25,941 bases of DNA, from the NCBI GenBank assembly GCA_042216335.1, contig JBDGTY010000006.1, forward strand, positions 1 through 25,941, read 5' to 3'. Shown here piece by piece: positions 1,003-25,941 of the stretch (position 1 is its first letter; each line of letters starts with the position of its first letter). Source of the DNA: Candidatus Nanohalobium sp. (lineage in GTDB: Archaea > Nanohalarchaeota > Nanosalinia > Nanosalinales > Nanosalinaceae). The notes under the pieces are model-generated. The model had not been told where the DNA came from. It did not search any database and saw only the letters and a program-made list of their open reading frames with translations. The position numbers and the translations under genes were made by a program.

Positions 1003-1004
1003 AA

Positions 1005-1838: not shown

Positions 1839-2001
1839 GTTTCAAGGTTCGTGCTTGTGTGTTATTAAACCAAAGTACGAGGAGTATCTTTACTGGTTGT
1901 GTGATACTCCGTAACTTGTACCGGATTAGTAGTACTCTCTGCACCATACCGCACTATCATGCATTCACAGAAGTAGTGACTGTGTGGTCACACAATCAAT
2001 T

Positions 2002-2099: not shown

Positions 2100-2117
2100 A
2101 ATTGGGTTAATGGTTCT

Positions 2118-2140
2118 AAGTCTTAAGTATCTATTGACTT
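2118..2140. promoter_or_regulatory. Palindromic TATA-like CTTAAG (probable bidirectional promoter) overlapped by inverted repeat AAGTC-N13-GACTT
   Basis: The same CTTAAG element with the same 23-nt spacing precedes the DUF433 ATG at 5506; the flanking 5-bp inverted repeat could be an operator. Confidence 0.45.
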
Positions 2141-2196
2141 CAACTAGCCGTTACGCTGCCAATCATGCTTCTCCTCAGCTCAAAAGGTGAACAATA

Positions 2197-2714: not shown

Positions 2715-2717
2715 TCC

Positions 2718-4196: not shown

Positions 4197-4217
4197 GCGG
4201 CATTATTGTGCAAGGTC
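4162..4217. repeat. Probable right transposon end: perfect 12-bp inverted repeat plus a third motif copy
   Basis: ATTTTTGTGCAG (4162-4173), 9-nt spacer, CTGCACAAAAAT (4183-4194), then ATTATTGTGCAAGGTC (4202-4217) at the composition boundary. Confidence 0.7.
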
Positions 4218-5505: not shown

Positions 5506-5739
5506 ATGAACATAGTTGAAGATTCGGACCACAGTCAGGGCGCACCGACTGTGGAGGGCACCGGCATCAGAGTAGTGGATATCGCCGAGGCCTACGAGCA
5601 CAGCGGCTACAGCCCAGACGAGATCACCGAGCTTTACCCAGGTCTTTCTCTCAGTGATGTACATTCTGCCCTAGCTTACTACTACGAAAATATCGATGAT
5701 CTCCGCTCCGAACTCTCCGAACCAGGCGTCTCCGCATGA
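5506..5739 (+). CDS. DUF433 protein (putative antitoxin)
   Basis: GAPTVEGTGIRVVDI...GYSPDEITELYPGLSLSDVHSALAYY; ATGA overlap with the downstream PIN gene. Confidence 0.9.
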   Translation: MNIVEDSDHSQGAPTVEGTGIRVVDIAEAYEHSGYSPDEITELYPGLSLSDVHSALAYYYENIDDLRSELSEPGVSA

Positions 5740-6056
5740 AGACAGTTTACCTAGACGAGTCAGTCTGGATGCCCGTTGCTAAAGGACTTCGACAGAGAGG
5801 CTGGGAAGTCAAAACCACCCATGAAGAAGAGACCTTGGGTGATACCGATAGAGAACAGCTCCAGCTGGCAGTCGAGAAAGACTATATCTTACTGACCTTT
5901 GACGACGACTTTCTCTCGCTGGTGGAAGGCAAAGGCCTGAAACACCGTGGAATAATCTATGTCAATCAGTCCGGAAAGAAGATTGGAGAAGTAGTCAAGA
6001 AAGTAGACAAATGCCTGAACAAGAACCCAGAACTTTCAGACATCCACTACCTCTAG
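5736..6056 (+). CDS. DUF5615 PIN-like protein (putative toxin, VapC45-like)
   Basis: YLDESV...LRQRGWEV...DREQL...ILLTFDDDF...HRGII; the usual partner of DUF433. Confidence 0.88.
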   Translation: MKTVYLDESVWMPVAKGLRQRGWEVKTTHEEETLGDTDREQLQLAVEKDYILLTFDDDFLSLVEGKGLKHRGIIYVNQSGKKIGEVVKKVDKCLNKNPELSDIHYL

Positions 6057-10672: not shown

Positions 10673-11068
10673 ATGGAGAAAGCAGTACTGGATACATACG
10701 CCTGGATCGAATACTTCCGCGGCACTGAGGAGGGAGAGAAAGTCCGGGAATATGTTGACGGAGACAGCAGAATCCTGACGCCTTCCGTGGTCGTGGCCGA
10801 GCTCCGGGACAAGTATGTCAGGACAGGCCTGGAGGAGAGGTGGAGAACCCGGAAGCACTTTCTGAAGATGAAATCCGATATACTTGAACTGGAGTTTGAT
10901 GTGGCAGATGAGGCCGGAGGACTGAAATGGGATCTGAGAGAGAAATTTGACGACGTCGGGCTGGCCGATGCCATCATCCTCTCTCATACAATCCAGGAAG
11001 ACGCTACACTCCTTACCGGCGATGACCACCTGACGTTCAGGAAAGAAGTAATGGATATCTCCAGCTAG
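10673..11068 (+). CDS. vapC: VapC PIN-domain toxin
   Basis: VLDTYAWIEYF, VVAEL, LADAIIL and LLTGDDH acidic PIN tetrad. Confidence 0.9.
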   Translation: MEKAVLDTYAWIEYFRGTEEGEKVREYVDGDSRILTPSVVVAELRDKYVRTGLEERWRTRKHFLKMKSDILELEFDVADEAGGLKWDLREKFDDVGLADAIILSHTIQEDATLLTGDDHLTFRKEVMDISS

Positions 11069-12071: not shown

Positions 12072-14480
12072 CTACTCCACCTTGACCGAGACCCATCCAC
12101 TCTCTGAAGAGTTCAACGCAGTACCGAACGACGCCTCCAGACAGTTCTGATTAACCGTCAAAGAGTTGATCGCCTCCGCCAGCTCCTTACGGGACGAATC
12201 AGCCGAAACCCGTGGAACACTTCCAGTATCACATGCGACCGCCGTGCCGAACCTTCCTGAAGCGACCTCATCACCTTCCTCGATCTCCTCACCCGGGGCA
12301 ACACGTACAGGCACCTTACCCTCCAGTGCCACACGTACACCTTCAGCATTCGAGTTCAGTACATGGCCGGGATTACTGGAGACGACTCCAACAGCGTCCT
12401 CGAAACGGGCCTCAGTCGCCTCAACCTCAGCCTTCCCGTCAGAAACCTTCACAACAGTACCTGGAGCCGGATCACCCTCAGCGCTGTAGATTTCGGCCAG
12501 GTCAGCACCGCTCGTGTAAACGTTGCCGTACACCTTCAAACTGTCATCAATACTAACGTTCGCACCATTATTATTTGTGATATTATAGTCCTTCATATTC
12601 AGGTTCGCACCAGCATTGTTTCCAGCCTGCATGGTTTCGGAAAGATTCTCAACACTTCCACCGCCACCACAACCGGTACAACTACCCTTCACAGTCAAGT
12701 TCTGCACAACAGTAGAAGTACCGTGAACCGTCAAATTACCGGTGACATTCACATCCAACTCCTCACCGTTCAAGTTGCCGAAAGTGGCCTCGTACGCGTT
12801 GGGGGCTTTGGCTTTGTTGCCGATTGCGACCGCACCAAAGCCGGAGGCAGAACTGGCAGGGCCGAGCGCCACAGTATTTTTGGCGGAGGCTTTACTAAAA
12901 TCGCCGAGCGCCACCGCATAATTACCGGAGGCTTCACTGGTAGAACCAAGCGCCACCGTATCTTGACCAGAGGATTGGGCTTGGTATCCGAGTGCTGTGG
13001 CGCCGGTTCCGTTTGCTTTTGCGTCGGTGCCAATTGCTGTTTCGTTACCGAACCCGGAGTTGTACGGTGCGTCTGCTTGTGCTCCGCGCCCGATTGCGAT
13101 GTCGGTATTGTTGTTGGTGTTGGTGGTGGAACCGCCGATCTGTATTCCTTGTTCTTTGTTGAAACCGTATCGGATGGTCCGGTTAGCCACGTTCCCAGCC
13201 GCCAACGTCTCGGAAAGATTATCGGCCTGAGTGGTAGAACTCAGTTTGTTGCAGTTATAGCTCCCGTTTGGATAGATCGTCTTGATAGCTTCATCGCTAG
13301 CGCACTGCGTCTGGTTGAAGAACCCTCTGATCTCGCTTATCTCGGAAAGAGAATTGTTCTCGAAGTCTACACCGGCATCAACATCTATTTCTTCAGAGCT
13401 CAGAATGTTGAAGCCATCGTATACGGCCGAGACCGAATTCTGGGAGTTCGCGGCCATGAATATTCCCCATCGACCAAAGGAATAACTGGTGTCTGTTCCC
13501 CGTACTTGTGCAACCCTATTACCGGAGGAAACATTATAGAGCTCCGCATTTATAGTCCCATTTAGTTTCCAGTCAACAACAAATCTGTAGTAATTGTTCT
13601 TGATAAGGTTAACACTTGTATTGTCAATTCTTCCATCATTGTTGGTTCCCAAAACCGTATCCAGAAGAAGCCGATCATTCTGTATGTCCAAGTCTAACTC
13701 ATAGGCACCCGGATCATTAGGTTGTTCCGCAAATATAACTGAAGGCCCTCCAGCGGAAGAAGTGGCCTTGATATATCCCTGGAACTTGTCTCCACGTTCA
13801 GGTCCGTCAGAACCCGATTGCACTAGTGCTCCGTAAGGCTGACTATATGGCTTGTTCGAGAACGTGACCTCTGTAGCCGCACTTCCTTCTTGAACCCCTG
13901 AGGTAACCTGAGAAGCACTAACACTTCCCACGCCGTTATCCTCTACCAGCTGATACTCATCAACATCCCCATCGTCCCAAGAATCGTACATCGGAGAAAC
14001 CGGCTTCGAAGTAATCCTGTTCACACGGGCGAAAGTACCTTCGCCACCAAGAGTAAAGTTAGAGCCGAGAATGAGATTGCCGCCGGAAGGATTTAATTCG
14101 GAGAGATTATCAATGTTATTGCCGTCGAAATCAATGCTCTGATTCGCAACATTACCCGCAGCCAGTGTCTCGGAAAGGTTTTCTGCCTGTGTTGTGGTTG
14201 AGAGTGTGTTGCATTTGAAGGTGCCGTTCGCGTATATTTCTTTGATTGCTTCGTTGGCGTCGCAGTCGTTGGTGTCGAAGAAGTTCCGGATTTCTTTGGC
14301 TTGCATGTTGACGCCGCCGTTGTTGGTGATGTTGAATATGGTTCCTCCTGTACTGTTTTCGAATACCAGGTTGCCGCCTGAGTCGGAGAACGTGGAGATC
14401 TGGGCGGATGTGGTGGCGGCGGTGAAGAGCAGGAGGGTGACTGCGGTTGCTGCCTTGATTTTCCTTGAGAAATCCTTCAT
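12072..14480 (-). CDS. Secreted trimeric fibre/adhesin A: signal peptide, Cys-neck/ENLSETL repeats, beta-sandwich insert, YadA-head repeats, C-terminal Peptidase_G2-like intramolecular chaperone
   Basis: Signal MKDFSRK...TSAQ; 14-residue repeats (ATALGYQAQSSGQD/TVALGSTSEASGNY/AVALG...); C-terminus GADLAEIY...GTVV...VGVVSSNPG...VALEGKVPVRV...IEEGDEV; many N-x-S/T sequons. Confidence 0.8.
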   Translation of the reverse strand: MKDFSRKIKAATAVTLLLFTAATTSAQISTFSDSGGNLVFENSTGGTIFNITNNGGVNMQAKEIRNFFDTNDCDANEAIKEIYANGTFKCNTLSTTTQAENLSETLAAGNVANQSIDFDGNNIDNLSELNPSGGNLILGSNFTLGGEGTFARVNRITSKPVSPMYDSWDDGDVDEYQLVEDNGVGSVSASQVTSGVQEGSAATEVTFSNKPYSQPYGALVQSGSDGPERGDKFQGYIKATSSAGGPSVIFAEQPNDPGAYELDLDIQNDRLLLDTVLGTNNDGRIDNTSVNLIKNNYYRFVVDWKLNGTINAELYNVSSGNRVAQVRGTDTSYSFGRWGIFMAANSQNSVSAVYDGFNILSSEEIDVDAGVDFENNSLSEISEIRGFFNQTQCASDEAIKTIYPNGSYNCNKLSSTTQADNLSETLAAGNVANRTIRYGFNKEQGIQIGGSTTNTNNNTDIAIGRGAQADAPYNSGFGNETAIGTDAKANGTGATALGYQAQSSGQDTVALGSTSEASGNYAVALGDFSKASAKNTVALGPASSASGFGAVAIGNKAKAPNAYEATFGNLNGEELDVNVTGNLTVHGTSTVVQNLTVKGSCTGCGGGGSVENLSETMQAGNNAGANLNMKDYNITNNNGANVSIDDSLKVYGNVYTSGADLAEIYSAEGDPAPGTVVKVSDGKAEVEATEARFEDAVGVVSSNPGHVLNSNAEGVRVALEGKVPVRVAPGEEIEEGDEVASGRFGTAVACDTGSVPRVSADSSRKELAEAINSLTVNQNCLEASFGTALNSSESGWVSVKVE

Positions 14481-14553
14481 ATACCTTTATGGGTTTCTAC
14501 CGGTTTTTAATCTGTCGGTAGGTGAGGCATCTTTCAGAGGATAGGGTAGTCTT

Positions 14554-14751
14554 TTAGTGCTCTCTGAGGTATTTTGCTGCCTCTTCACAAAAGTAATCGG
14601 ATTCATCCACGGACTCATCAAGGTACACCGCCAAGTCAACATCGCTGAGCTCACCGGCTTCTCCACGGGCCACCGAACCGAACACGTAAGCCAGTCCGAC
14701 ACCATCCACATCCCTGAAAACCCAGGCAACCTCCTCAGAATCCACATCCAT
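14554..14751 (-). pseudogene. Truncated minimal nucleotidyltransferase (MntA-like antitoxin)
   Basis: LAYVFGSVARGEAGELSDVDLAVY (GS-x10-DxD) but only ~65 aa, lacking the C-terminal VDLV strand. Confidence 0.75.
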
Positions 14752-14802
14752 CAAGAAAAAGGAAACTCCTACCTTTCAAACCAGTTACGGGCCTACTATC
14801 CA

Positions 14803-17800
14803 TCAACCACAGACCTCAGCCCCAGGATTATCCTCACAGACCACGGACTTCAAGCCCTGAACCGTCTCCTGCAGCTTCTGTATCTTACGTTCCTGCCTCC
14901 GGTTCTCCCTCTTCAGCTCCTGGAACCTTCTGATGGTCTGGACATCCGACTCCACAACTTTCTCAGCTGTCTCCCTGGGTCTGTCCTTGTCGAAGTTCTC
15001 GGACTTCTTCACGAAGAAGCTGGACTGGTTCTCCGGAACCGAAACCTTACACCACTGGCTTCCCTTCGAACACTGGACGACCGGCGACTTGGCCGTCAAC
15101 GTATTGTAGTAGATCTTGGAAGCATTGATGTCACCCGGATCAAGGCCCTTATTGGTGTTACTGCCGAAAGCCGCACTACCATCAACACTCAGGTTTCCTG
15201 TGACCTCCACATCCAGCTCCTGGCCCTGACTGTTACCAAACCTCGCCGTGTAAGGCTGGGTGCTTGACGCGTTGTATCCTATGGCTACCGCCCCTTCTGC
15301 ATTCGTTGTGGCACTCTGGCCTAGAGCTATCTGGTTGTAGCCATAAGCGCTCGCGGAGTTACCGTAGTTGATCGTGACACGGTCAAGCTCAGGAGTATCG
15401 GTGGAATCACCAGCCATAGTTACGTTGAACCTGGCATACCGGGCACTTATGCCCAGCAAAGATGACTCGGTGCCCCCATCCAGTTCTAGCTTCTTCACGA
15501 AACTGCCGCTCATATCCGAAGAATTAGACAGTTCAACGGAGACATTCACTTCTGTACCACTAGGAAGGAAGGAAGTGACCTCAAAATCCGGGAAAGGGTT
15601 CACGCTTCCCGTATCAAACACGTTGCCCGTATAGCTTCCCGACTCATGATATGTTACGACGTTCTTGAACTTCGCCAGGTTATTCGCGTCACTTACTGTA
15701 TAGATTTCATCTCCGCTGACCGTTACATCGTTCCCGTTACCAGCCAAGGACTTATTAAATTTCTTAGAAACAGAACTGCCTTTATCAATATACTTGACCA
15801 ATAGATTTTTGACATTGCCGTAGAAGACGTTATATCCGGTTACGGCATATATTTCCCCATTTTCAACCGTTATCTTAGTGATATAGACCGAGGGATAAGT
15901 ATATTTCCAAACCTGTGTTGCGGAAGATCCCTGATCTTTATACTTAAAAAGGCCACTATAATCATTACTGCCATAGACGAAATTTCCTTCTACAGCGACG
16001 GAGGTTGTAGAATCTGCACCTATCGATCTATTCCACTTCTGAGTTCCATTAGCATAGAAAGCCTCTATATATCCTGACGAAGCTGTGTAAACACTTTGAT
16101 TTTTTACCGCTACATCCATACCATTACCTCCACCGGAGTTAAGGCTTTTATTCCAGACCTCAGAGGCATTATTGCCATTATCAATATACTTTATCAGCAG
16201 GGGATTATCCGTAGTTACATAAACTTTGTTTCCTTCTACGCTTACACTCTTACCATTCTTAGGAAGAGATTTATTCCATCCCTCGGTAGCACTACCTCCT
16301 TGATCAGTATATTTAATCAGTTTGTTGCCTTGTGTGACCACGAAGACCTCATTTCCTGTGACAGCGATACCGTTTCCAGTGTTAGAAAGGCTCTTACTCC
16401 ATACCTTGCCTCCCGTCGCGTCGTACTTTGCCACCTCATTGCCGGATGCAACGTAGAGATTTCCGTTCTGAATATCTACGGCATTACCGTTTCCGTTTGT
16501 ACTTGAGTTCCACACCCAGTTCGCCTTATCTCCTTTGACGCCGAGTTCCAGATTGGTTCCATCGATACTGAGATTGCTTTTGATGGTTCCGTTGTTCTGC
16601 CACTCCTGTTCAGTATCTACTGTAAGGTTGCTTGCCGGAGCTACGTTTTGCTGGCCAGTGTAGGTGTCTTCACTTCCTATCTCTATTCCGCGGGTGAACT
16701 CTATGTTATTCACGGAGGTGATCTTGTCGTTTCCTACGTTCAGGTCTCCACCGAAGTTGGTGGATGCTCCGGAAGGATTGATGAATCCTACCTGCCGGAG
16801 ATCATTACCCTGAAGGTTGATATCACTTCCTATCTTGAGTCCTCCGGATATGCTGGAGTTCCCGACAATCAACTGGTTATCACCGAGATTAAGGTCACTG
16901 TTGAAGCTGATGACGCCATCCGTACCTGAGACACTGTAGATGTTGTTGATGGAGTTACCATTCATGTCGATGCTATTTGAGCCGGCGCTATTACCTTGTT
17001 CGAGCGTAGCCGCCAGATCCTGCCCAGCTACAGCAGCATCAGCTGATATACATTCATAGCTACCATTCGGATAGACCCCTGCTACAACATAATCATTCTG
17101 GCACTGAGTTTGGTTGAAGAAATTTACGATACTGCCGTTCCTCAAGTCGAGTTGCTGGCCATAAATGCTTGCGTTGCCAGTAATATTGAGGCTTACTCTG
17201 TAAGAATTTTCAATAGATCCAAAGACCGCTTCGCCCGAGTCATCCGTCTGAGCATACGAACCTATGGCAATAGAATTTTTAGCTGAAGCATTCGCGAAGG
17301 GTCCAATGGCTATAGCTGGCGCACTGTACTTGCCCGAAGTATCTGCTATTGAACTATATCCGATAGCAATTGAACCATAACCTCCTTTTACCTTGGCTCC
17401 ATTACCTATTGCTACTCCTTGAACAGTTTTAGCGGAAGCAGAGTTACCCAAGGCCACAGGACTACCTCCGGACCTCGCTAATGAATTCTTTCCCAAAGCA
17501 ACTCCATCAACGGTGGAAGCACCGTCACCCACAGCCACACCAGCAGGATCATCTACCTCGGCGCTCTCGCCAATTCTTATACCGCTGTTTTTGAAACTTA
17601 TCTGAGCCGAGCTATTTATCAAATTGATACCTCCGGCACCGTGAACTGTCAAATTACCAGTAATGTTAACATCAAGTTCTTCGCCATTAAGATTTCCGAA
17701 AGTGGCTTCGTAGCTGTCATTACTTAAAGATTTGACACCGATCGCCACAGCCCCTTCCTTCAGGGCAGCAGCTCTAAACCCTACAGTAGAACTGTAAAGG

Positions 17801-18420
17801 CCTGAAGCAGAGCTTTCCGACCCTAAAGCCGTAGCACCATTGGCACTACTACTGCTTTTAGTGCCTAGAGCGACACCCAGCTGTCCTGCAGAAGTATTAT
17901 GACCTATCGCCACGCCACCCACTTCAGCATTGCTGTTTGAACCGAAAGCAGATGCATATCCTCCGGCTGTTGAGTTGTAGCCGACGGCCGTTTCTCCGAA
18001 TTTCGGGGTCGGATCTGGAGCCATTGCCAGAGATCCAGATCCTATAACCACGTCCTTCCAGTCATTACCTGAAGCGCCTTCCCCCAGTAGAATCGAACTG
18101 TTGAAAGATATGTTGTCCGCGCCAAGCAGCGAGTTACTGCTCAGGTTGATCGCGTATCCACCGGCGGAGTTGCCCTGGGCCAACGTCTCGGAAAGATTTT
18201 CAACACTGGAAACAGAATCCACACTCACACAGCTGTAGCTTCCGTTCCTGTAAACTCCCTGAACTACCTTACCAGAACCACAGGCAGAACTGAAGAAGTT
18301 GGTGATGTTGTTGCCGTTGGCGTTGAAGGTGGCGTTGTCGTACAGTTTGATTCCCTGTGTCTGTGCTGCGGCCCCGGAGATGAGGAGGAAGCCGATGATT
18401 ATCAGTGTTTCTAGTTTGAT
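14803..18420 (-). CDS. Secreted trimeric fibre/adhesin B (~1205 aa): signal peptide, Cys-neck repeats, three YadA-head blocks, 7-bladed beta-propeller inside a split beta-sandwich, C-terminal coiled coil; start codon anomalous
   Basis: The frame stays open upstream of the tracked GTG (18228) to a TGA at 18448-18450, encoding IKLETLIIIGFLLISGAAAQ (signal peptide) and a neck repeat NFFSSACGSGKVVQGVYRNGSYSC. Confidence 0.8.
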   Translation of the reverse strand: MKLETLIIIGFLLISGAAAQTQGIKLYDNATFNANGNNITNFFSSACGSGKVVQGVYRNGSYSCVSVDSVSSVENLSETLAQGNSAGGYAINLSSNSLLGADNISFNSSILLGEGASGNDWKDVVIGSGSLAMAPDPTPKFGETAVGYNSTAGGYASAFGSNSNAEVGGVAIGHNTSAGQLGVALGTKSSSSANGATALGSESSASGLYSSTVGFRAAALKEGAVAIGVKSLSNDSYEATFGNLNGEELDVNITGNLTVHGAGGINLINSSAQISFKNSGIRIGESAEVDDPAGVAVGDGASTVDGVALGKNSLARSGGSPVALGNSASAKTVQGVAIGNGAKVKGGYGSIAIGYSSIADTSGKYSAPAIAIGPFANASAKNSIAIGSYAQTDDSGEAVFGSIENSYRVSLNITGNASIYGQQLDLRNGSIVNFFNQTQCQNDYVVAGVYPNGSYECISADAAVAGQDLAATLEQGNSAGSNSIDMNGNSINNIYSVSGTDGVISFNSDLNLGDNQLIVGNSSISGGLKIGSDINLQGNDLRQVGFINPSGASTNFGGDLNVGNDKITSVNNIEFTRGIEIGSEDTYTGQQNVAPASNLTVDTEQEWQNNGTIKSNLSIDGTNLELGVKGDKANWVWNSSTNGNGNAVDIQNGNLYVASGNEVAKYDATGGKVWSKSLSNTGNGIAVTGNEVFVVTQGNKLIKYTDQGGSATEGWNKSLPKNGKSVSVEGNKVYVTTDNPLLIKYIDNGNNASEVWNKSLNSGGGNGMDVAVKNQSVYTASSGYIEAFYANGTQKWNRSIGADSTTSVAVEGNFVYGSNDYSGLFKYKDQGSSATQVWKYTYPSVYITKITVENGEIYAVTGYNVFYGNVKNLLVKYIDKGSSVSKKFNKSLAGNGNDVTVSGDEIYTVSDANNLAKFKNVVTYHESGSYTGNVFDTGSVNPFPDFEVTSFLPSGTEVNVSVELSNSSDMSGSFVKKLELDGGTESSLLGISARYARFNVTMAGDSTDTPELDRVTINYGNSASAYGYNQIALGQSATTNAEGAVAIGYNASSTQPYTARFGNSQGQELDVEVTGNLSVDGSAAFGSNTNKGLDPGDINASKIYYNTLTAKSPVVQCSKGSQWCKVSVPENQSSFFVKKSENFDKDRPRETAEKVVESDVQTIRRFQELKRENRRQERKIQKLQETVQGLKSVVCEDNPGAEVCG

Positions 18421-18627
18421 CCTAACACCTCTTTTTTCCGGATGTGTTCAGTACTGTAACGGGTTTTCTCGGTTTTCATGTTGAGTTGTTGGGCCTCCGG
18501 TGTTTAAACTACTTGAGTTAGAAGTTCTCCCTTCTTGTCACTGAATTGGTATCCCTTTGTTTATATTATGTTTGAAAGCCCGGGAAAAAGAGGCATTATT
18601 TTAATCTCCATCGGGTTAACCGTAGGT

Positions 18628-19953
18628 GTGAGAAAACACTTTTTGCTCCTGGCGGTGCTGGGCATGGCTTTCCTCGGGGGTGCGACCGTTGAGATAGGTC
18701 CGGGCGTCAGGATATTCCAGTACGACCAGCCGTCGAACATCAACTTTTCACAGCCTCAGAACTACAGTTTCATCGGCGTAAGAAGCCTCAGGACCGACTT
18801 CGGCAGTACTAACTTCACCGTGTCTCCAAAGTCAGATGCCGCAGCCGAGCTCGACTTCCTGAGGCCGCTGGCCGGGAGGCAGAGTTATGTTTCCAACTTC
18901 ACTGCCTTTGCGTCGCCTTCACAGCATGTTTCTTTCAACATCACTGATCTGCCGTCCAGTGATTTCTACGAGGCTTTTTTCTCGGACAACGGTTCAAGGA
19001 TCTTCATCGGTTATGCGGATTCCCCGGATGATATGTTCAACTTCTCCGCGAAGCTTCAGAACGTGGATATTTCGATCTTCAACTACGGTGAGAAAGGTGT
19101 AGAGGCGGAGAACATCAGTTTTAACGATACGAATCCTGTCGAGGACAATACTCTGAAGGTGGAGGCGAATATCTCGAATGAAGGAGTTGTTGACCCGGAA
19201 TCCCCGAACACGACAGTCAAAATCGAGACTTTCAACGGGACTCGGTGGGTTTTCAGGCAGAACATTTCGACCGTCGACACCGTGCCTGTGAACGGTTCCG
19301 TCCTTGCAAATGTTTCCTGGACCGTTAAGCCAGGGCCGTGGCGCTTCACCTCTGTCGCCGACCCCGAGGATGAGATCAAGGAGACGAACGAGTCGAACAA
19401 CCAAGCTTCGGAAATCCTGAACGTGGATTCGTACCAGATACTGTACGGTGAGAGCAATTCGAGCCTTGTTCTGGGTGCCGGTAACCGGGAGATCTACAGC
19501 TGGAATCCGGGTGAGAGCCAGGGTAACCTGTTCTTCTACGATGCTGATGCATCCTTCGATTACGGCGATCTTGAGCCGGTGAATTCGTCGGATCTCGTGG
19601 AGCTTGATGAAGCTTTGAGGATGCGTGGGCATAATGATTCGATCCAGGAGCTCTGGGACGATAACGGAGATGGGAGCATCGATCGTTTCGAGTCGATGAA
19701 GGTCGGGGACAGAACTTTGAGTGTCCCGGTTACCAATACCACGGCGGACAGCCCGTTTGATACCGGGATTCTGTACGATTCGGGAGATGGAACAGGTTTT
19801 GACGGCAGCCAGGACCTGGTGTTTGTGACGGAGCTGAAGTTTGAGAGAACCGGGAAGTACGGGACCTATGATTACGAGGTGCGTCTGCCTTTCTACCTTG
19901 GCGATCTTCGTGCCGGCGTGGATAAGGTGTCGGTTGACTTCCAGTTGACCTAG
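18628..19953 (+). CDS. Secreted CARDB-domain surface protein with a C-terminal domain paralogous to 23055..23741
   Basis: Likely start GTG 18628 (MRKHFLLLAVLGMAFLGGA), ~25 nt after ATTTTAAT; CARDB motif VEANISNEG...VSW....G......ADPEDEIKETNESNN. Confidence 0.8.
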   Translation: MRKHFLLLAVLGMAFLGGATVEIGPGVRIFQYDQPSNINFSQPQNYSFIGVRSLRTDFGSTNFTVSPKSDAAAELDFLRPLAGRQSYVSNFTAFASPSQHVSFNITDLPSSDFYEAFFSDNGSRIFIGYADSPDDMFNFSAKLQNVDISIFNYGEKGVEAENISFNDTNPVEDNTLKVEANISNEGVVDPESPNTTVKIETFNGTRWVFRQNISTVDTVPVNGSVLANVSWTVKPGPWRFTSVADPEDEIKETNESNNQASEILNVDSYQILYGESNSSLVLGAGNREIYSWNPGESQGNLFFYDADASFDYGDLEPVNSSDLVELDEALRMRGHNDSIQELWDDNGDGSIDRFESMKVGDRTLSVPVTNTTADSPFDTGILYDSGDGTGFDGSQDLVFVTELKFERTGKYGTYDYEVRLPFYLGDLRAGVDKVSVDFQLT

Positions 19954-19999
19954 TCTTTAATACGGGGAGTGTTCAAATAGACTTAAGGGCTGATTCTCG

Positions 20000-21139
20000 G
20001 TGGTGGAAAAGGACAGGATCCAAGAGGTGATGGATGAGATAGACGATGCTTCAGTTGAGGATATCGCTGAAGGCCTCGACGTAGATGAGGAGGAAGTTAT
20101 GGATGTTAAACTTGATGATATAGAGAATAATGCCGAGGAGCAGCGCCACGAGATGGAGGAGTTCGAGGAGCGCGTCGAGGAACACCAGAAAGCGTTCCGG
20201 GAGCTGATAGACGAGATCCAGGAGGTCATAGTTGGGCAGGAGGATGTTGTGGAACACGTCATCACTGCCATCATCTGTGACGGTAACGTATTGCTTGAGG
20301 GTGTTCCAGGCCTCGGTAAGTCGCTTCTTGTCGAGTCTCTGGCAGAGACAATTACTGATACCGAGCACAACAGGATCCAGTTCGTTCCGGACATGCTTCC
20401 ATCCGATATTCTTGGTCAGAGAGTGTATAACCAGGGTCAGGGCGAGTTCCACATCAACAAGGGCCCGGTTTTCACCAATTTCCTGCTGGCGGACGAGATC
20501 AACCGTGCGCCGCCGAAGACCCAGGCCGCATTGATGGAGGTCATGCAGGAGAAGAAGGTTACTATAGGAGAGGAGACTTTCCAGCTTGAGCCTCCGTACA
20601 TTGTACTTGCGACGCAGAACCCTGTCGAGCAGAAAGGAACGTATCCACTGCCGGAGGCTATCATGGACCGTTTCTTCATGAAGCTGGAGCTTAACTACCC
20701 GGACAGGTCAGATGAAAACCTGATACTTGAGAGAAACTCGATCCGCGACACCAACATCTTCGACCGCCTGGATCAGGTGATGGACAAGCAGCAGATACTG
20801 CATGCACAGGAGGATGTCAGGGACATACACCTTTCGGAGGAGGTCCGGGACTATATTACCAGGCTGATCACTACGGCGAGAGGTGAGACGGATCAGAAGA
20901 TCGACATGATCAAATACGTTGACTATGCTCCTTCGCCACGTGCCTCCATCTGGCTTTCGATGGGTGCTTCGGCCCAGGCGATGCTCGACGGCAGGACCTA
21001 CGCTACTCCAAAAGATGTGAAGGATGTCGCAAAACCTGTTCTACGGCACAGGATCGACGTGAACTACGAGGGAAAGCTGAAGGAAATCGATTCAAATCAG
21101 ATCGTGGATGCCCTGCTTGATTACGTGAAGGCAGAATGA
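20000..21139 (+). CDS. moxR: MoxR-family AAA+ ATPase
   Basis: Walker A LLEGVPGLGKS, RIQFVPDMLPSDI, Walker B LLADEINRAPPKTQAAL, ATQNPVEQKGTYPLPEA, SPRA, VLRHR. Confidence 0.95.
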   Translation: MVEKDRIQEVMDEIDDASVEDIAEGLDVDEEEVMDVKLDDIENNAEEQRHEMEEFEERVEEHQKAFRELIDEIQEVIVGQEDVVEHVITAIICDGNVLLEGVPGLGKSLLVESLAETITDTEHNRIQFVPDMLPSDILGQRVYNQGQGEFHINKGPVFTNFLLADEINRAPPKTQAALMEVMQEKKVTIGEETFQLEPPYIVLATQNPVEQKGTYPLPEAIMDRFFMKLELNYPDRSDENLILERNSIRDTNIFDRLDQVMDKQQILHAQEDVRDIHLSEEVRDYITRLITTARGETDQKIDMIKYVDYAPSPRASIWLSMGASAQAMLDGRTYATPKDVKDVAKPVLRHRIDVNYEGKLKEIDSNQIVDALLDYVKAE

Positions 21140-22017
21140 GCCAGCTACACCTGGACAAGGAGGATATAATCGAGGAAGCCAGAAGGAACAGCTTCAGGAT
21201 GGAAGATAGGATAAGAATACTTATTCTCTACAAGAAGATCGTCACAGGTGCAGGATTGGAATTCGACCGACTGAGGAAGTACGTACCCGGCGACCAGGCA
21301 AAGATGATCGACTGGAACTCCTTCGCCAGGACAGGAAACCTCTACACCAAGATATTCGATGAAGACAGGTTGCTGAACGTTTTGATTATCCAGGATTTCT
21401 CGGATTCGATGAAGGTCGGAACCACTGACATACTGAAGCATGATTACGCCTCGATTATATCGACGACGCTTGCAATAACTGCTCAGGATGCCGGTGATCA
21501 GGTCGGTTTCGTTGCGTTTTCCGACGACATCAAGGAGAGCGACGCTCCCTCACTCGACGAGGAGATACCTTACAGGATAGCCGACAAGACTGAGAACAAG
21601 GAGATCTACAGCGAGGAGGCGGACTGGGAGTCTCTCGCCAACCATGTACTGCCGAACTTCGAGTCGGAGACCTTCGTCTTCGTTATCTCGGACTTCGTCG
21701 GGGACATGGAGCCGGCGGAGAAGTTCCTGATACAGGCGGAGGAGAAGTTCCACGGCGTCTTCACAGTCATGGTCCGCGACCCGCTCGACTCCGAGCTACC
21801 AGAAGGTGTGGGACAGGCCTACCTGGGAAGCCCGTCCTCCAGCGACAATGTATTAGTGAATGTTGATAAGATCCGTGAAGAATACAACGAGAAGGCGGCG
21901 GAGCAGGAGGCCAGGATCAAGAGCAGGATGGAGAGCCTGGGACAGGACTTCATGCTGACGCACACCGACGAGGAGTTCACAAAATCACTTGCAGCATACC
22001 TTGACAGGAGGTACTAG
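21136..22017 (+). CDS. DUF58 protein (vWA-like MoxR partner)
   Basis: GAGLEFDRLRKYVPGDQAKMIDWNSFAR, DFSDSM, GDQVG, VISDF, DPLD; ATGA overlap with moxR. Confidence 0.9.
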   Translation: MSQLHLDKEDIIEEARRNSFRMEDRIRILILYKKIVTGAGLEFDRLRKYVPGDQAKMIDWNSFARTGNLYTKIFDEDRLLNVLIIQDFSDSMKVGTTDILKHDYASIISTTLAITAQDAGDQVGFVAFSDDIKESDAPSLDEEIPYRIADKTENKEIYSEEADWESLANHVLPNFESETFVFVISDFVGDMEPAEKFLIQAEEKFHGVFTVMVRDPLDSELPEGVGQAYLGSPSSSDNVLVNVDKIREEYNEKAAEQEARIKSRMESLGQDFMLTHTDEEFTKSLAAYLDRRY

Positions 22018-22019
22018 AC

Positions 22020-23009
22020 GTGGTAGAGATAGGTATAGGCCCGATAAACCTTATCCTGAAACTGAGCCAGGCGGACGCCCTGATGCTTCTGTTCCTCATC
22101 GGTTTGACCACCGCGTCCTTCTACCTGATGCGGAGGATGCGGAAGGATCGCGTCACCAAACTAGGGAACTACCAGACACTGAAGGAGGTGCACGATAGCA
22201 TTTCGATCGGAAGCCCGGTCATACTGGCTGCGAAGATCCTCCTGGTCACGATTTTATTCTTGACAGCTACCGAATCCATCCAGATCGAGGCACAGCAACC
22301 AGTCACCGATGTAAACTATGCTATAACGGTCGACTCCTCACAGTCGATGCTTATCCCGGACTACGAGCCGGACAGACTGGGCTACGTCAAGAAAAGACTG
22401 GTCAACTGGGTTCAGAACCTTCCCGTCCGCGCAGATCTATCGGTTGTCAGCTACTCTAGCCAGGCCGAGACCCATGCATTGCCGACCAAAGACACTGGCA
22501 GGATAGTCAAAGCCATAAGGAGTATAGAGGTCAACCTGAACCGCTCCGGAACAGACCTGAGCGCCGGACTTACCGCGGCGCTGGAGAACGGAAACAATAA
22601 CAAGAAGAGGGTCATCCTCGTGACTGACGGGAGAAATATCAGGGACAGGGAGATACAGCAGTCTATCGAGATCGCCCGAAACACCTCCGCCCAGATATAC
22701 ATCTTCGAGCTGCCGAGGAACAACCAGACAGAGCAGCTTTACCAGCAGTTGAATCTTTCCCTTGCCGAGGCCAACCTGAAAGGTGGGGTACGGGAAGAGG
22801 TCGTCAACTCCGGTTTGCGGCGTATCGCCGAAATCACCGGAGGAGGATATTATGAGGTGGACAACAGTGAGTTCTTCCAGGCCGCTCTCGACGACACGAC
22901 GACAAAAGAGAAGAAACTGGGGATAAACTCGAACTTTTACATCCTGATATTTATCTCGTTCTTCGTGATATTCGAGATGCTCCTTTACAGCAAATACGGC
23001 GCCCTCTAA
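22020..23009 (+). CDS. BatA-like membrane vWA protein
   Basis: Two N-terminal TM helices, MIDAS DSSQS...GT...VTDG, LRRIAEITGGGYY and a C-terminal TM helix. Confidence 0.88.
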   Translation: MVEIGIGPINLILKLSQADALMLLFLIGLTTASFYLMRRMRKDRVTKLGNYQTLKEVHDSISIGSPVILAAKILLVTILFLTATESIQIEAQQPVTDVNYAITVDSSQSMLIPDYEPDRLGYVKKRLVNWVQNLPVRADLSVVSYSSQAETHALPTKDTGRIVKAIRSIEVNLNRSGTDLSAGLTAALENGNNNKKRVILVTDGRNIRDREIQQSIEIARNTSAQIYIFELPRNNQTEQLYQQLNLSLAEANLKGGVREEVVNSGLRRIAEITGGGYYEVDNSEFFQAALDDTTTKEKKLGINSNFYILIFISFFVIFEMLLYSKYGAL

Positions 23010-23054
23010 AACCCAGGCATTTTTTAAACCAGAAATATCAAGTTATTAGTATTC

Positions 23055-23741
23055 ATGAGAAAATCATCCAAAGTGAATCTCCTATCTCTGACAATTATAG
23101 TTAGCCTGATGGCTTTTTCGGCTGCAGGTCAGCCGGAAGCAGCACAGACAGCAGCCGGAAGCAATCAGTCAATTTCCGGGAGCCAGCCCAGCAACGTCAC
23201 TATAAACGCTGGAGCTGTCGTCAACAGCAATGTTTCACAGTCCACAGCGACGGATAAGTGGGCAGGTTTCTTCGGTACCATCTCTGCTTCCAGGGTACTT
23301 GGTTCACCCTCAGCAACTCTCTACAAGTGGACAGCCAGTACACTGACGAACGCAGAAGTCATAGTGACTCCTCAATCGAGTCCGGTTCCTACAACGCTTT
23401 CGCAGGTCAGTAATCCGGATACATTCCTGGGATCAGGATACAAAAACGGGCCGGCGGCCGCGAGCAAGACGTTTACGGAGACCGAATCCATACAAACGAT
23501 GAGCCAGTCTAAGTCAACTGTTTCAGTAGATCTCTATGGCAGCAGTGGAAGTGCGAACGAGACATTTACAACGCTGCTCTACAACGATGGTAACGATGGT
23601 TCAGACGATCCTGTCTACGTTGCCAACGGCACGAGCACCACGACTGGATTCGACGGCAGCACAGTCAATTACCAGTTGCTTGTCGGAGTAGGAGATTCGA
23701 ACGCCAGGAAGACTTTCACGTTCTACCTTTCGATCCCATAG
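23055..23741 (+). CDS. Secreted Ser/Thr-rich beta-strand protein without membrane anchor (candidate major filament subunit)
   Basis: Signal peptide MRKSSK...SAAG; WAGFFG..S....LG.....LYKW motif; own TTTTTTAAA box (~23020-23028) and own terminator. Confidence 0.8.
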   Translation: MRKSSKVNLLSLTIIVSLMAFSAAGQPEAAQTAAGSNQSISGSQPSNVTINAGAVVNSNVSQSTATDKWAGFFGTISASRVLGSPSATLYKWTASTLTNAEVIVTPQSSPVPTTLSQVSNPDTFLGSGYKNGPAAASKTFTETESIQTMSQSKSTVSVDLYGSSGSANETFTTLLYNDGNDGSDDPVYVANGTSTTTGFDGSTVNYQLLVGVGDSNARKTFTFYLSIP

Positions 23742-23743
23742 AT

Positions 23744-23772
23744 ACCGGTTTTTATCCGGTTTCTTCTTTTTA
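23744..23772 (+). terminator. Hairpin plus T-tract terminator
   Basis: ACCGG-TTTTTAT-CCGGT followed by TTCTTCTTTTT directly after the stop of 23055..23741. Confidence 0.6.
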
Positions 23773-23813
23773 TTCCCCAACATTCTTTTAAGGAAATCTG
23801 CCAAAGATTAGGT

Positions 23814-25535
23814 GTGAGAAACCAAAAACTGTATCTCGTGGCCACCTTTCTTTTCTCTGCAGCATTTCTAATCGGTACGGGTTCCGCTACCTACCTGGTG
23901 AACTCCCAGGAATGGGAGGATGTGTACTCTGCATCTTACTACTCCTACAGCCAGAACCAGACACCGTACTTCCTGCGGAACGATAACCTGGGAGTGTTCA
24001 ACGTTATGCCTTACGGCGAGGAAGTGAATATAGTCGAATCGACGGACTCTCCTGTTGTCTCCGACGTGGCTAGTCAGGCCCGTGCCAGGGGCTTCCAGGT
24101 CGGAGAGGTGACGATGGTCGAAAACGCGAACCTTGAGCTTGCACCCGACAGTCCCGAAAGGCTTGTGGTCGTGCCGAGGGATTATCCTGCGGCGGCCGTG
24201 GCTGCCGCTCCCTACGCACGTGTAACGGATTCATGGGTTTTGATCGCGGGCGAGGACAACGTTGAGAGAGTCGAGCAGTTGATGCAGGAGGCATCGAGGA
24301 GCGTAATGATAGGTGACTTCGGAAGAGTCCTCTCCAACAACCTCGGAGATGAGGCCGATGAGAAAATTCTTTCCCCCAGCAAGTTCAACCTCTCCGTTCA
24401 GGTGGCGAAGGCCTACCTGGAGAGGAAAGATAGTAAGAAGGTCAGGGTTGCCAGCGGGAACTTTATCAGTCGGAGCATAGTCAGAGGTAAGTCTCCGGTG
24501 CTCCTGACAGGCACGAACTATCTTCCGGATGTCACCAGGAAGTTCCTTTTCGAGGAGCCTTCACACAACATATCCACCGCTATCATGATCGGCAACGAGA
24601 TGACTTCTGTCGGTGAGGATATCAGAAAGTATAATTTCACGCGGAACAACAGGACGACGGATGAAAAGATGACTGTATTCGTGAAGTACGGTCAGGCCCG
24701 GGGGGACTCGAGTCAGATCTACGCCATCAGCCTCTTCCCTCTTCCAACCGGCGACATATCGCTGAGCATCCCACGGGTGACTTACAACCCCGAGAGCGGA
24801 GAAGTCCTGATCACTTACCGGAACACAGGCGAGAGCAGGATGTACGAGTTGACAAGCTTCGAGGTAGTGTCGGACGGAGAGGTAGTGGCTACGGGAAGCG
24901 ACATGAACCCGGTTTTCATCGGCGGTAACTCCAACAGGACCGTCAGCTACGATACCAACATCAGTCAGTCGGTTCGTGATGCGTACGTCGAGTTTTCAAC
25001 GACCTACGGTGCCTCTCCCCAGCAGCTCGACACCTACCTGACGGAGGCAGGCCAGTTCAGTCCTCCTCTCAGGAAGAACCTGACAATCAAGCAGATAACG
25101 GACAGTTCCAACATGAGCGTGGAATCGGTGAAGTACTTCAAGGGTCTGGACAGGTTCAAGGTGAAGATCGTCAACCATCGAAGCCAGGAAGGGTTCGCCC
25201 AGGTAAGGTTGACGGATGTCATGGTGACCGGAGAAACCCAGTCCTTCGGCAGTGAGAGGAAGAAAGTTCCCGGAGATTCAAGCCAGACTTTCTACATGCC
25301 GGCAGAGCTTGACAGGATCGACCTGGGGCAGAACCAACGGGTCAACACGGTACTATCCTACGGCGAGGAAAGAAATCTTCTGGTCAAGACCAGTACATCC
25401 TCCCGTGAACTCAAAGTAGTGGAAAGGACGATAACACCGGTTATGATAGGAGTCGCCGCGATACTGTTGATTCTCATCGGCGGAGCGTTCCTGGCCTACC
25501 GCAGACTCGACATAGAGATCGAGGTAAACTCATAG
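23814..25535 (+). CDS. Membrane-anchored surface protein: CWB2-like alpha/beta repeats, two Ig-like domains, C-terminal TM helix
   Basis: Signal peptide; DYPAAAVAAAPYARVTDSWVLIA resembles the cell-wall-binding-2 repeat; ITYRNTG and VKIVNH beta domains; C-terminal VMIGVAAILLILIGGAFLAYRR. Confidence 0.75.
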   Translation: MRNQKLYLVATFLFSAAFLIGTGSATYLVNSQEWEDVYSASYYSYSQNQTPYFLRNDNLGVFNVMPYGEEVNIVESTDSPVVSDVASQARARGFQVGEVTMVENANLELAPDSPERLVVVPRDYPAAAVAAAPYARVTDSWVLIAGEDNVERVEQLMQEASRSVMIGDFGRVLSNNLGDEADEKILSPSKFNLSVQVAKAYLERKDSKKVRVASGNFISRSIVRGKSPVLLTGTNYLPDVTRKFLFEEPSHNISTAIMIGNEMTSVGEDIRKYNFTRNNRTTDEKMTVFVKYGQARGDSSQIYAISLFPLPTGDISLSIPRVTYNPESGEVLITYRNTGESRMYELTSFEVVSDGEVVATGSDMNPVFIGGNSNRTVSYDTNISQSVRDAYVEFSTTYGASPQQLDTYLTEAGQFSPPLRKNLTIKQITDSSNMSVESVKYFKGLDRFKVKIVNHRSQEGFAQVRLTDVMVTGETQSFGSERKKVPGDSSQTFYMPAELDRIDLGQNQRVNTVLSYGEERNLLVKTSTSSRELKVVERTITPVMIGVAAILLILIGGAFLAYRRLDIEIEVNS

Positions 25536-25941
25536 ACGACGTAGCCCGCGGCCAGAAACACCATCATGATTATCAGAACCACGATCAACAGAGTATAGCT
25601 CGGACGGGATTCCTCCTCTACCTCCTTCACGTCTGAGTAACTGTACTGGTTTCTGAACTCTCCCTGGAAAACCTTATAGCTCTCAGCACCTTCAAGATTC
25701 TTGATGACATGCCTTCCGGTTTCACCTACTGGAATCTTTACGCGAGACATACCCTCTCCGGCCTGGACCATAGTCCACACCGGTTCCTTCCCGTTATTCC
25801 TGAAAGCAACTTCAAGCCTTCCCTGCGAACTGTTGAGGCTGACAACCTCCAGATCCGTTACAGGTCCGACTGTCGACCCCGGAAGGTCCTCAGGCCGGAG
25901 GGTCCTGGAAACAGGTTCCGTTCTCTCAGTCGAGTAGTTGA
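25496..25941 (-). CDS. Partial (3' end) membrane-anchored surface protein with Ig-like domain and C-terminal TM helix
   Basis: The frame is open from the window edge (NYSTERTEPVSRTL...LEVAFRNNGKEPVW...) to the TM YTLLIVVLIIMMVFLAAGYVVY; 40-bp convergent overlap with 23814..25535. Confidence 0.75.
   Translation of the reverse strand, partial: NYSTERTEPVSRTLRPEDLPGSTVGPVTDLEVVSLNSSQGRLEVAFRNNGKEPVWTMVQAGEGMSRVKIPVGETGRHVIKNLEGAESYKVFQGEFRNQYSYSDVKEVEEESRPSYTLLIVVLIIMMVFLAAGYVVYEFTSISMSSLR

Follow-up and report, generated by a model that had tools for sequence, protein, structure and literature searches.

A nanohaloarchaeal MoxR-DUF58-vWA surface locus and an unnamed, possibly polymerising extracellular domain

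What does a nanohaloarchaeon build at its surface with a block of genes in which a MoxR-DUF58-vWA operon stands among secreted and membrane-anchored proteins, next to two fibres with YadA-type heads? The question is raised by a stretch of 25,941 nucleotides (nt) of Candidatus Nanohalobium sp. (assembly GCA_042216335.1, contig JBDGTY010000006.1, forward strand), here called the window; its source is treated as a nanohaloarchaeon, that is, a DPANN archaeon. A previous, sequence-only reading had proposed an undescribed host-attachment appendage for positions 12,072 to 25,941, with protein 23055 as the filament, protein 18628 as an adaptor, a membrane base, an assembly ATPase, and the fibres as variable receptor-binding tips (proteins are designated by their first coordinate, see Table 1). 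The genes that it had named are all present, at or near the positions given there, with strong family matches. We read the locus, tentatively and at somewhat less than an even chance, as a conserved nanohaloarchaeal (DPANN-type) cell-surface assembly locus, in which proteins sharing an unnamed domain, called X, would form a head-to-tail extracellular fibril.

The X domain and its predicted self-association

The two secreted proteins located on either side of the operon, 18628 and 23055, have a domain in common. In 23055, a Sec-type signal peptide (Sec-like by reading: MRKSSK, a hydrophobic core, SAAG-Q) is followed by an extension of about 40 residues and by the all-beta X domain. 18628 consists of a signal peptide, an N-domain without family, a CARDB Ig-like domain and a divergent C-terminal X domain, and carries 20 N-glycosylation sequons. 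Its X domain (residues 267-422) was recognised by the 23055 family profile with an hhalign probability of 91% (E-value, E, 1.1e-6), and by hmmsearch in a small database at 3.9e-12, in agreement with the earlier description of 23055 as a secreted paralogue. In both proteins the only hydrophobic segment is the N-terminal, signal-like one. By sequence similarity, the shared domain fits a scheme of subunit plus adaptor. The X profile had no match in either fibre, in the vWA protein, in 23814 or in 25496.

No Pfam, NCBIfam or PHROG family was found in 23055. A word-indexed search with this protein produced five non-self relatives, at 45-48% identity, while a profile search of 1.84 billion representatives produced 681 clusters at E<=1e-3, reported as archaeal or DPANN, 161 of them at E<=1e-10. 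No Pfam family is shared across 119 aligned family members, and the best match of the family profile to PDB sequences had an E of 0.21. The AlphaFold2 (AF2) model of 23055, obtained with the 119-sequence alignment, is confident and all-beta, with a predicted local distance difference test score (pLDDT) of 88; a model based on a 6-sequence alignment (pLDDT 43.7) was discarded. When the retained model was compared with PDB and BFVD by using Foldseek, nothing was found at E<=0.001, and the best template modelling score (TM-score) was about 0.2. The neighbouring clusters of 23055 in the Atlas are 91-100% archaeal, the commonest phyla being Woesearchaeota, Nanobdellota and Microcaldota; the nearest named cluster is WxL, at only 0.78, and is taken as a lead, not as evidence.

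The domain is also found in different protein contexts. Scanning genome contigs with the X alignment yielded a single locus, from a nanohaloarchaeal metagenome-assembled genome and called L001 below, in which four proteins carry it; one of them, of 794 residues (aa), begins with an X domain, continues with a beta-helix and is anchored by a transmembrane (TM) segment at its C-terminus. Among the 150 best X hits, 6 are proteins of 350-3145 aa, whose X domain ends no more than 3 residues from the C-terminus. On these comparisons, the X domain is a real, large, unnamed, modular and DPANN-associated family. A separate observation concerns four long DPANN surface proteins ending in an X domain (P0071, P0112, P0128 and P0154): all have sub-threshold matches to the Nup98-96 autopeptidase family S59 (best 3.9e-6, 27.5 versus 28.4 bits), with an HFS/HFT motif about 25-45 residues downstream of the matched stretch in each, and, as judged from these motifs, they may self-cleave into two associated pieces.

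The region around the 23055 gene contains candidate transcription signals. The TATA-like element located upstream, as placed in the sequence, would give a leaderless transcript, and together with the terminator-like hairpin it is a candidate sign of a high-output structural gene. Similar elements, CATTNTTTTAA, are also located 5' of 18628 and 23814. The motif was derived from the same three sites at which it was counted; its 3 matches in the window all lie just 5' of 18628, 23055 and 23814, and 3 or more matches occurred in 19 of 100 shuffles, so that the count is not significant.

The ability of 23055 to associate with itself was analysed by predicting the complex of three copies of residues 26-228, with a custom alignment of 119 rows and three controls. 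Modelling of 23055 oligomers had been suggested as a check of the sequence-only reading, and the outcome is a predicted self-association: the interaction prediction score from aligned errors (ipSAE) was 0.60, 0.60 and 0.59, versus 0.00 for the best control. The runs had at least 94% of their contacts in common, and the pLDDT of the partners was at least 76. The predicted interface is asymmetric. One face, on copy 2, is formed by residues 65-94 and 202-228; the other, on copy 3, by the N-terminal extension (residues 45-66) together with residues 68-73, 131-139, 158-165 and 199-209; copy 1 takes part with just residues 82-84 and 89. All eight invariant or nearly invariant columns of the X family (W69, G74, G53, T66, G71, L82, W92 and T139) fall within the interface lists. 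Read from the contact lists, not from coordinates, the arrangement would be an open, head-to-tail one and not a closed ring.

No named family includes the X domain, nor is it similar to any known filament subunit. Neither a fold or family model shared with known filament subunits, nor a class III signal peptide, was found in 23055. Chaperone-usher pili of the FimH type, archaeal threads, bundling pili and cannulae therefore serve as a working analogy only: as in these filaments, a secreted, beta-rich subunit of about 200 residues has its N-terminal extension in the (here predicted) interface, and some larger proteins of the window and of L001 carry an X domain at one end, as FimH-type tips or anchors carry theirs. 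Unlike them, 23055 has no fold or sequence similarity to such subunits and is known from genes and models alone; unlike chaperone-usher systems, the cluster in the window includes no usher, chaperone or sortase gene.

The operon, the anchored proteins and their conservation

The three genes enclosed by 18628 and 23055 are tightly packed: the start of the DUF58 gene overlaps the stop of the MoxR gene by 4 nt, and 2 nt separate the DUF58 and vWA genes. MoxR has an acidic N-terminal extension and a Walker A motif (GVPGLGKS) at residue 101; the DUF58 protein has a DFSDS motif at residue 87. The vWA protein shows TM-like segments at about residues 9-37, 63-81 and 306-324, two of them N-terminal and one C-terminal, and an intact DxSxS motif of the metal ion-dependent adhesion site (MIDAS), DSSQS, at residue 105. 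Its 4 sequons all lie at residues 174-245, between the second and the third TM segment. This position agrees with an outward vWA domain, as in the similarly built BB0173 of Borrelia, which has three TM helices and a vWA domain facing the periplasm (PMC5700661), so that the domain of the window protein, as judged from sequence, probably faces outward as well.

The identification of MoxR, DUF58 and a membrane vWA protein was confirmed by Pfam, and the three together have the features of a Bat-like module: a MoxR-proper AAA_3 domain with a Walker A motif, an adjacent DUF58 gene and a TM-anchored vWA protein with a MIDAS. The Bat operon of Bacteroides and BB0170-BB0176 of Borrelia likewise combine, in a tight operon, an AAA_3 MoxR, a DUF58 protein and BatA/BatB-like TM-vWA proteins. 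They differ from the window in their BatC-, BatD- and BatE-type TPR or SH3 partners, for which no family match was found in any open reading frame (ORF) of the block; the window operon is flanked instead by X glycoproteins and by an anchor protein with CWB2 and Ig-like domains. The match of the vWA protein to the NCBIfam model VWA_BatB_Lepto (1.7e-9, 37 versus 350 bits) is far under the cut-off, and the function of Bat modules is itself unsettled. As a side observation, the MoxR orthologue of L001 (6396-8072 in L001) has an N-terminal extension of about 230 residues, versus about 75 acidic residues in the window protein, and this extension had no family match at E<=0.001.

Two other identities were tried and rejected. 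A ternary conflict system is reportedly built from MoxR, a partner beta-propeller and a vWA protein that is cytoplasmic and carries effector domains; the MoxR-family profile of that system (bpMoxR, PF20030) scored 44.8 bits in the window protein, versus 195 for AAA_3, the vWA protein is a BatA-like membrane protein, and the sole propeller lies inside a secreted fibre. A gas-vesicle GvpN identity for MoxR was ruled out on architecture.

Among published descriptions, the nearest is that of a "secretion or membrane remodelling complex" of MoxR and vWA proteins around arCOG01314, reported by Makarova, Galperin and Koonin in 2015 as a prediction of function only (PMC5898192). In both the published complex and the window, a MoxR/GvpN-type ATPase and a vWA protein are neighbours of Ig-like surface proteins and of a protein that combines a signal peptide, a large alpha/beta ectodomain and one C-terminal TM segment (PMC5898192). 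The window anchor is CWB2-like and not DUF4350/GldG-like, the vWA protein is BatA-like and not a secreted Ig-vWA fusion, and the scheme as published includes neither DUF58 nor the X domain (PMC5898192, section 3.2 and Table 2). The earlier claim that the system is undescribed holds in part. No account of the cluster was found in the literature on nanohaloarchaeal and DPANN MoxR, vWA, DUF58 and YadA proteins, including cryo-tomography and surface studies of DPANN archaea, subscription literature being outside the coverage. Archaeal MoxR-vWA surface or "secretion" complexes had been predicted in 2015 (PMC5898192), and trimeric-autotransporter-like proteins had already been noted in a cultivated nanohaloarchaeon (PMC10266531). 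The novelty lies in a surface module, linked to MoxR and vWA, around an undescribed and possibly polymerising DPANN domain.

A protein anchored in the membrane follows 23055. In 23814, the signal peptide is followed by a CWB2-like module, which spans about 250 residues, then by two Ig-like domains of the beta-sandwich type, with a TM anchor at the C-terminal end (residues 543-561). The window protein itself has no Pfam match; homology to CWB2 emerges at the level of its family, comprising 25 non-self relatives. The family profile matches C. difficile Cwp6 (5j72) with an E of 1.2e-14 over profile positions 111-282, CW_binding_2 (PF04122) is found in 4 of 24 family members (best E 3.1e-4), and for residues 29-280 every structural neighbour in the Atlas is a CWB2 protein, at TM-scores of about 0.4-0.45. 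The Ig-like part has an ArlF-like match of 1.1e-5, under the cut-off. Among 25 listed of the 29 Pfam families matched (E<=1) by 24 family members, DUF4350 (PF14258) is absent. The module of the C. difficile proteins Cwp6 and SlpA is thus homologous to the N-terminal ectodomain of the 23814 family, which differs from them in being archaeal, in its C-terminal TM helix anchor and in having Ig-like domains instead of an enzyme. To our knowledge there is no polymer of the polysaccharide II (PSII) type in nanohaloarchaea, and by analogy 23814 is regarded as a putative glycan binder.

The convergent gene 25496, cut by the end of the window, encodes one C-terminal TM segment and has weak similarity (E 1e-4) to an equally placed 553-aa protein of L001. 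The 3' ends of 23814 and 25496 overlap by 40 nt (25496-25535), in the part that codes for the C-terminal TM tails of both; the corresponding pair in L001 likewise overlaps, at 12391-12513. The sequence-only reading had described these genes as two TM-anchored Ig-like proteins. The C-terminal TM segments were found in both and Ig-like domains in 23814, which in addition is a CWB2 protein. The membrane base that it had postulated from 23814, the vWA protein and 25496 is upheld insofar as each of them is anchored by TM segments.

The same genes occur together elsewhere. The order in L001 equals that of the window (CARDB-X, MoxR, DUF58, vWA, X, 23814-like), with identities of 49%, 71%, 67%, 50%, 46% and 49%, respectively; upstream of this core is a divergent fibre-like gene, and downstream of it are further genes for surface proteins. 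Of the five relatives of 23055 other than itself, three are on contigs equal in size (4415, 24205 and 207354) to contigs with 23814 relatives. As far as sequence conservation can tell, the core from CARDB-X to 23814 is thus supported as a conserved unit, and the supposition that the core genes would be conserved as a cluster is sustained by L001.

A third instance may be contained in the annotation of Ca. Nanohalococcus occultus, where genes SVXNc_0241-0246 are listed as hypothetical, hypothetical, vWFA, DUF58, MoxR and hypothetical (PMC10266531). The expression of SVXNc_0246 amounts to 55,024 units, versus 41,878 for EF-1alpha and 3,458 and 747 for genes annotated as surface layer (S-layer) genes; it is the highest value among the covered parts of the table, and the main text is silent on this gene (PMC10266531). 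SVXNc_0246 corresponds to 18628 by gene position only, as given by the annotated order, and is a candidate major surface protein. In the same genome, a second MoxR-DUF58 pair stands in another context, beside two vWFA genes (SVXNc_0844-0849; PMC10266531).

Table 1. Features of the surface-gene block in the window, with coordinates and main supporting matches
Feature	Coordinates	Strand	Evidence
Fibre 1, 802 aa	12072..14480	-	Pfam YadA_head 4.8e-17
Truncated MNT-like nucleotidyltransferase ORF, 65 aa	14554..14751	-	Polbeta 3.6e-11, NTP_transf_2 1e-10
Fibre 2, 1141 aa from listed GTG 18228	14803..18426 (frame, about 1207 codons)	-	PQQ_2 1.3e-20, YadA_head 8.4e-14
CARDB-X protein (18628), 441 aa from GTG 18628 (alternative start 18535)	18628..19953	+	CARDB 4.4e-7
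MoxR-type AAA+ ATPase, 379 aa, cytoplasmic	20000..21139	+	AAA_3 (PF07726) 5.1e-58, AAA_lid_2 6.2e-15
DUF58 protein, 293 aa, no TM segment	21136..22017	+	DUF58 (PF01882) 2.2e-33
BatA/BatB-like membrane vWA protein, 329 aa	22020..23009	+	VWA_2 5.8e-16
TATA-like element TTTTTTAAA	23021..23029	+	Read from sequence, 26-34 nt 5' of the 23055 ATG
X protein (23055), 228 aa	23055..23741	+	Signal peptide and all-beta X domain
Hairpin and T-rich tract, terminator-like	23744..23775	+	Terminator scan and sequence reading, directly 3' of the 23055 stop; hairpin and T-run at 23744-23770
CWB2/Ig membrane-anchored protein (23814), 573 aa	23814..25535	+	Family profile versus Cwp6
3' end of convergent gene (25496), 147 codons seen, cut by window end	25496..25941	-	ORF list, TM segment 117-135

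The YadA-head fibres and the setting of the block

The two fibres, encoded on the opposite strand, were said to be anchorless trimeric adhesins, and Pfam confirms two anchorless fibres with YadA heads. The head repeat of trimeric autotransporter adhesins (PF05658) is found in both, each preceded by a Sec signal peptide; no YadA_anchor (PF03895) match was obtained in either at E<=0.01, nor in their C-terminal pieces scanned at E<=10, and neither has a C-terminal TM or hydrophobic segment or a stalk or neck Pfam domain. In fibre 1, the signal peptide is followed by repeated NFF...C...NLSETL neck-like modules, then by a central domain without family at about residues 150-370, by YadA-head repeats at about 473-561, and finally by a C-terminus weakly resembling an intramolecular chaperone (IMC); the protein carries 25 sequons and no TM segment. 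Fibre 2 consists of YadA-head repeats, a central PQQ-type beta-propeller and a coiled-coil-like C-terminal tail. Among PDB sequences, fibre 1 matches the YadA head 1p9h (E 3.3e-8) and BpaC (4.1e-8), and fibre 2 matches 1p9h at 1.4e-4. The left-handed beta-roll of the YadA family is therefore present in both window fibres, which differ from that family in lacking the YadA_anchor, in ending with a weakly IMC-like domain (fibre 1) or a coiled-coil-like tail (fibre 2), and in belonging to an archaeon without outer membrane. By description, not by sequence comparison, they also resemble SVXNc_0803 of Ca. Nanohalococcus occultus, a protein like trimeric autotransporter adhesins, located beside lectin-domain proteins and proposed as a host-interaction factor (PMC10266531).

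The intramolecular chaperone assigned by the sequence-only reading is indicated in fibre 1, weakly and below threshold: its C-terminus matches Peptidase_G2 (PF11962) with an E of 0.0097 (15.8 bits, versus a cut-off of 25 bits), phrog_22593, a phage family of unassigned function, at 2.6e-7, and the tail-fibre family phrog_19602 at 0.0011, with no PDB sequence match for this domain. In fibre 2 no such match appeared in the C-terminal scan. A ConA/LamG lectin domain for residues 150-370 of fibre 1 was also considered and found unsupported, the PDB sequence search being uninformative.

The reading frame of fibre 2 remains open 5' of the listed GTG 18228, to about position 18426. These 66 or so codons encode the signal peptide as well as a neck module with homology to the fibre 1 and L001 fibre N-termini, and the fibre 2 N-terminus aligns from residue 1 with an ATG-started 661-aa protein of L001; ATG, GTG and TTG are all missing from the upstream stretch (18229-18426). 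Fibre 2 could have a non-canonical start, a start-codon mutation (as in a silenced or phase-variable gene) or an assembly error. In the same start region, a GAGGTG lies just 5' of a GTT/AGG/ATC stretch, where the L001 homologue has ATG.

Between the fibres, the truncated nucleotidyltransferase ORF covers only positions 3-49 of a 93-position profile, that is, the N-terminal half. It is probably, judging from the sequence, a remnant outside the system, and it suggests a past rearrangement in the fibre slot. The outer fibre position of L001 is held by an unrelated Ig-repeat protein. Searches for fibre relatives gave 19 non-self matches, covering just 10-31% of the query, and some of the distant ones combine YadA_head with Peptidase_S74; tblastn of fibre 1 against 50,697 phage records had no match at E<=1e-5. 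The fibres occupy a variable slot next to the core and are probably adhesins of the same surface.

The proteins of the window are strongly acidic (D+E 23.5% in the valyl-tRNA synthetase (ValRS), 21.9% in MoxR). The secreted or anchored proteins have 25, 38, 20, 5 and 9 N-glycosylation sequons, MoxR and DUF58 none, every predicted extracellular protein of the block being rich in them. No pilin, archaellin or capsid family matched among the ORFs scanned (sets of 9, 13 and 4 ORFs), so that the claimed absence of type IV pilin, archaellum and capsid genes stands for these ORFs.

Apart from a low-GC island at 1-4200, the window has a GC content of about 0.5, and the surface block equals the neighbouring housekeeping genes in this respect. 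ValRS, TatC and PIN-domain genes and a DDE transposase lie 5' of the block. The island (GC 0.36-0.42) is probably an inserted mobile element; its genes are those of a DDE_Tnp_1 transposase (2718-4196) and of a PolB-exonuclease/RNase H-like protein (2197-2691), besides two ORFs without family. PIN-type nuclease genes are located at 5736-6056 and 10673-11068 (DUF5615/PIN_10 and PIN matches); the small ORFs adjoining both could be candidate antitoxins. No tRNA was found in the window by ARAGORN and no Rfam family was matched, and scans for sigma-70 promoters and terminators were, overall, at chance level.

Fibril, wall or chance neighbourhood

The fibril reading can be put as a sequence of steps. 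The X glycoprotein 23055 would be exported by Sec and would polymerise head to tail outside the cell, giving a thin extracellular fibril, the N-terminal extension and conserved hairpin of one subunit packing on the next in a donor-strand-like manner. Multi-domain X proteins such as 18628 would join the polymer by means of their X domain, as adaptors or end subunits; at the membrane, 23814 and the outward-facing MIDAS domain of the vWA protein would tether or nucleate it, and inside the cell MoxR and DUF58 would act on the vWA protein to remodel or license it. The gene arrangement is compatible with such a scheme, as the operon appears to be flanked by promoter-bearing genes encoding secreted, sequon-rich X proteins, with 23814 and 25496 completing the set. 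A fibril is favoured over a lattice because the subunit size fits a filament, the N-terminal extension is in the predicted interface, and the prediction is open and asymmetric. The form of the polymer and the role of the vWA protein we infer from these features; MoxR is cast as an assembly ATPase by analogy with other systems, and host attachment is plausible by analogy, considering the lifestyle and the YadA heads.

Several observations weigh against the fibril. The confidence of the model supports binding between 23055 copies and doesn't show it, and the ipSAE mark, which in calibration 20 of 30 homo-pairs and 1 of 23 single chains of solved structure reached, is only a rough guide for 23055, as the custom alignment and the three copies differ from the calibration set-up. 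The conserved interface positions may also belong to the core, and some contacts between chains (for example, of 82 with 69-71) may mirror intra-chain contacts of the hairpin. Head-to-tail contacts would serve a two-dimensional lattice equally well. The Foldseek search with the 23055 model had no type IV pilin, TasA/Abp, thread, CanA or chaperone-usher match, CanA (7uii) being listed only at an E of 1.9. The cross-genome basis is thin, consisting of one locus, three coincidences of contig size and one annotated gene order, and the linkage of the X family to MoxR and vWA is seen within Nanohaloarchaea only. The fibres are tied to the core by adjacency only, in the window and in L001, and the contigs of their relatives match in size none of the 25 contigs carrying 23814 relatives; their proposed role as variable tips on a 23055 filament is not supported, the link being positional. 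MoxR-DUF58-vWA operons, finally, are widespread and of unsettled mechanism, and their adjacency to surface genes may be regulatory or incidental.

An S-layer-like, two-dimensional wall lattice fits the data about as well as a filament does. According to this explanation, which we hold unlikely as a whole while treating it as a serious competitor, 18628 and/or 23055 would form the lattice, 23814 would be its stalk by means of CWB2, and MoxR, DUF58 and vWA would assist in building a housekeeping wall. CWB2 is the S-layer-anchoring module of C. difficile, where it holds SlpA, and SlaB holds SlaA in a similar way; the homology of the 23814 family to CWB2, the predicted self-association of the X domain, its wide distribution in DPANN archaea and the abundance of sequons in the proteins all agree with a wall. 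A mature 23055 of about 200 residues speaks for the filament, this being a size below that of most archaeal S-layer proteins and common among filament subunits, as does the open, asymmetric predicted trimer, unlike the closed, symmetric oligomers usual in lattices; the several X paralogues fused to different modules (four in L001) suit a scheme of shaft, adaptor and anchor. Nanohaloarchaeal cells have been described with a regular, S-layer-like surface, the protein not being named there (PMC7443923), and the MoxR-flanking SVXNc_0246 is expressed above EF-1alpha and far above the S-layer-annotated genes, its identity resting on annotated gene order and not on sequence (PMC10266531). If it is the counterpart of 18628, the "adaptor" would be the most abundant product, a better fit to a major wall or shaft protein than to a tip, and this too counts against the fibril as drawn above. 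The block could also be an incidental juxtaposition, a Bat-like operon with its own stress, envelope or housekeeping role, of the sort suggested for the Bat operons of bacteria, lying inside an island of surface-protein genes. MoxR-DUF58-vWA triplets are found in varied contexts in many bacteria and archaea (PMC5700661; PMC5898192), as is the second pair of Nanohalococcus (PMC10266531); moreover, 23055 and 23814 have promoter-like elements of their own, and so are not in one operon with MoxR, and the fibre slot is variable and holds a truncated gene. This is made rather unlikely by the six-gene order and spacing, kept between lineages at 46-71% identity and mirrored in the annotation of a third genome, and by the conserved flanks, which carry the same rare X domain on both sides of the operon.

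A secretion or membrane-remodelling system like that predicted around arCOG01314, with the fibres and X proteins as its cargo, would account for the presence of anchorless proteins on both sides of the operon and for the components shared with the published complex (PMC5898192). It is improbable: the secreted proteins all have ordinary Sec-type signal peptides and need no special exporter, the cluster includes no polytopic, channel-like membrane protein, the signature DUF4350 is absent from the listed families of the 23814 family, and the vWA protein is of the BatA-like type and not a secreted Ig-vWA fusion. A viral or tailocin origin, in which the fibres would be receptor-binding tail fibres with their chaperone and the cluster a degraded mobile element, could draw on the weak phage-family and Peptidase_G2 matches of the fibre 1 C-terminus, on the YadA_head and Peptidase_S74 combinations of some distant relatives, and on the insertion-sequence-type transposase and low-GC island of the window. 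This last explanation is highly improbable, given the lack of any match to fibre 1 in the phage records, of capsid, portal, terminase, baseplate and integrase families among the ORFs scanned, and of any GC difference between the block and the adjacent housekeeping genes, as well as the Sec signal peptides of the fibres.

The fibril reading can be taken further, to the proposal that archaea have a further, new class of surface filaments with the X domain as the fold of their subunits, with assembly or anchoring dependent on MoxR, DUF58 and vWA and with multi-domain X proteins and the neighbouring YadA fibres as exchangeable host-binding parts. In this extended form the proposal is doubtful. If true, such filaments would be widespread among DPANN archaea and have no relation to type IV pili, threads, bundling pili or cannulae, the enigmatic MoxR-DUF58-vWA module would gain a concrete job, and the organelle would be one by which obligate symbionts attach. 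All cultivated DPANN archaea need attachment to a host cell, and the molecules of their surface and of the contact are largely uncharted. In a cultivated nanohaloarchaeon, a hypothetical gene adjoining MoxR is very strongly transcribed, and the locus gives a sequence handle on it. It also ties the X family to a module that is common in bacteria and archaea, pathogens included, and a structural substrate would make the mechanism of this module testable. More generally, it points to a large, unnamed extracellular family of DPANN archaea, whose self-polymerisation can be tested from a single protein of 228 aa.

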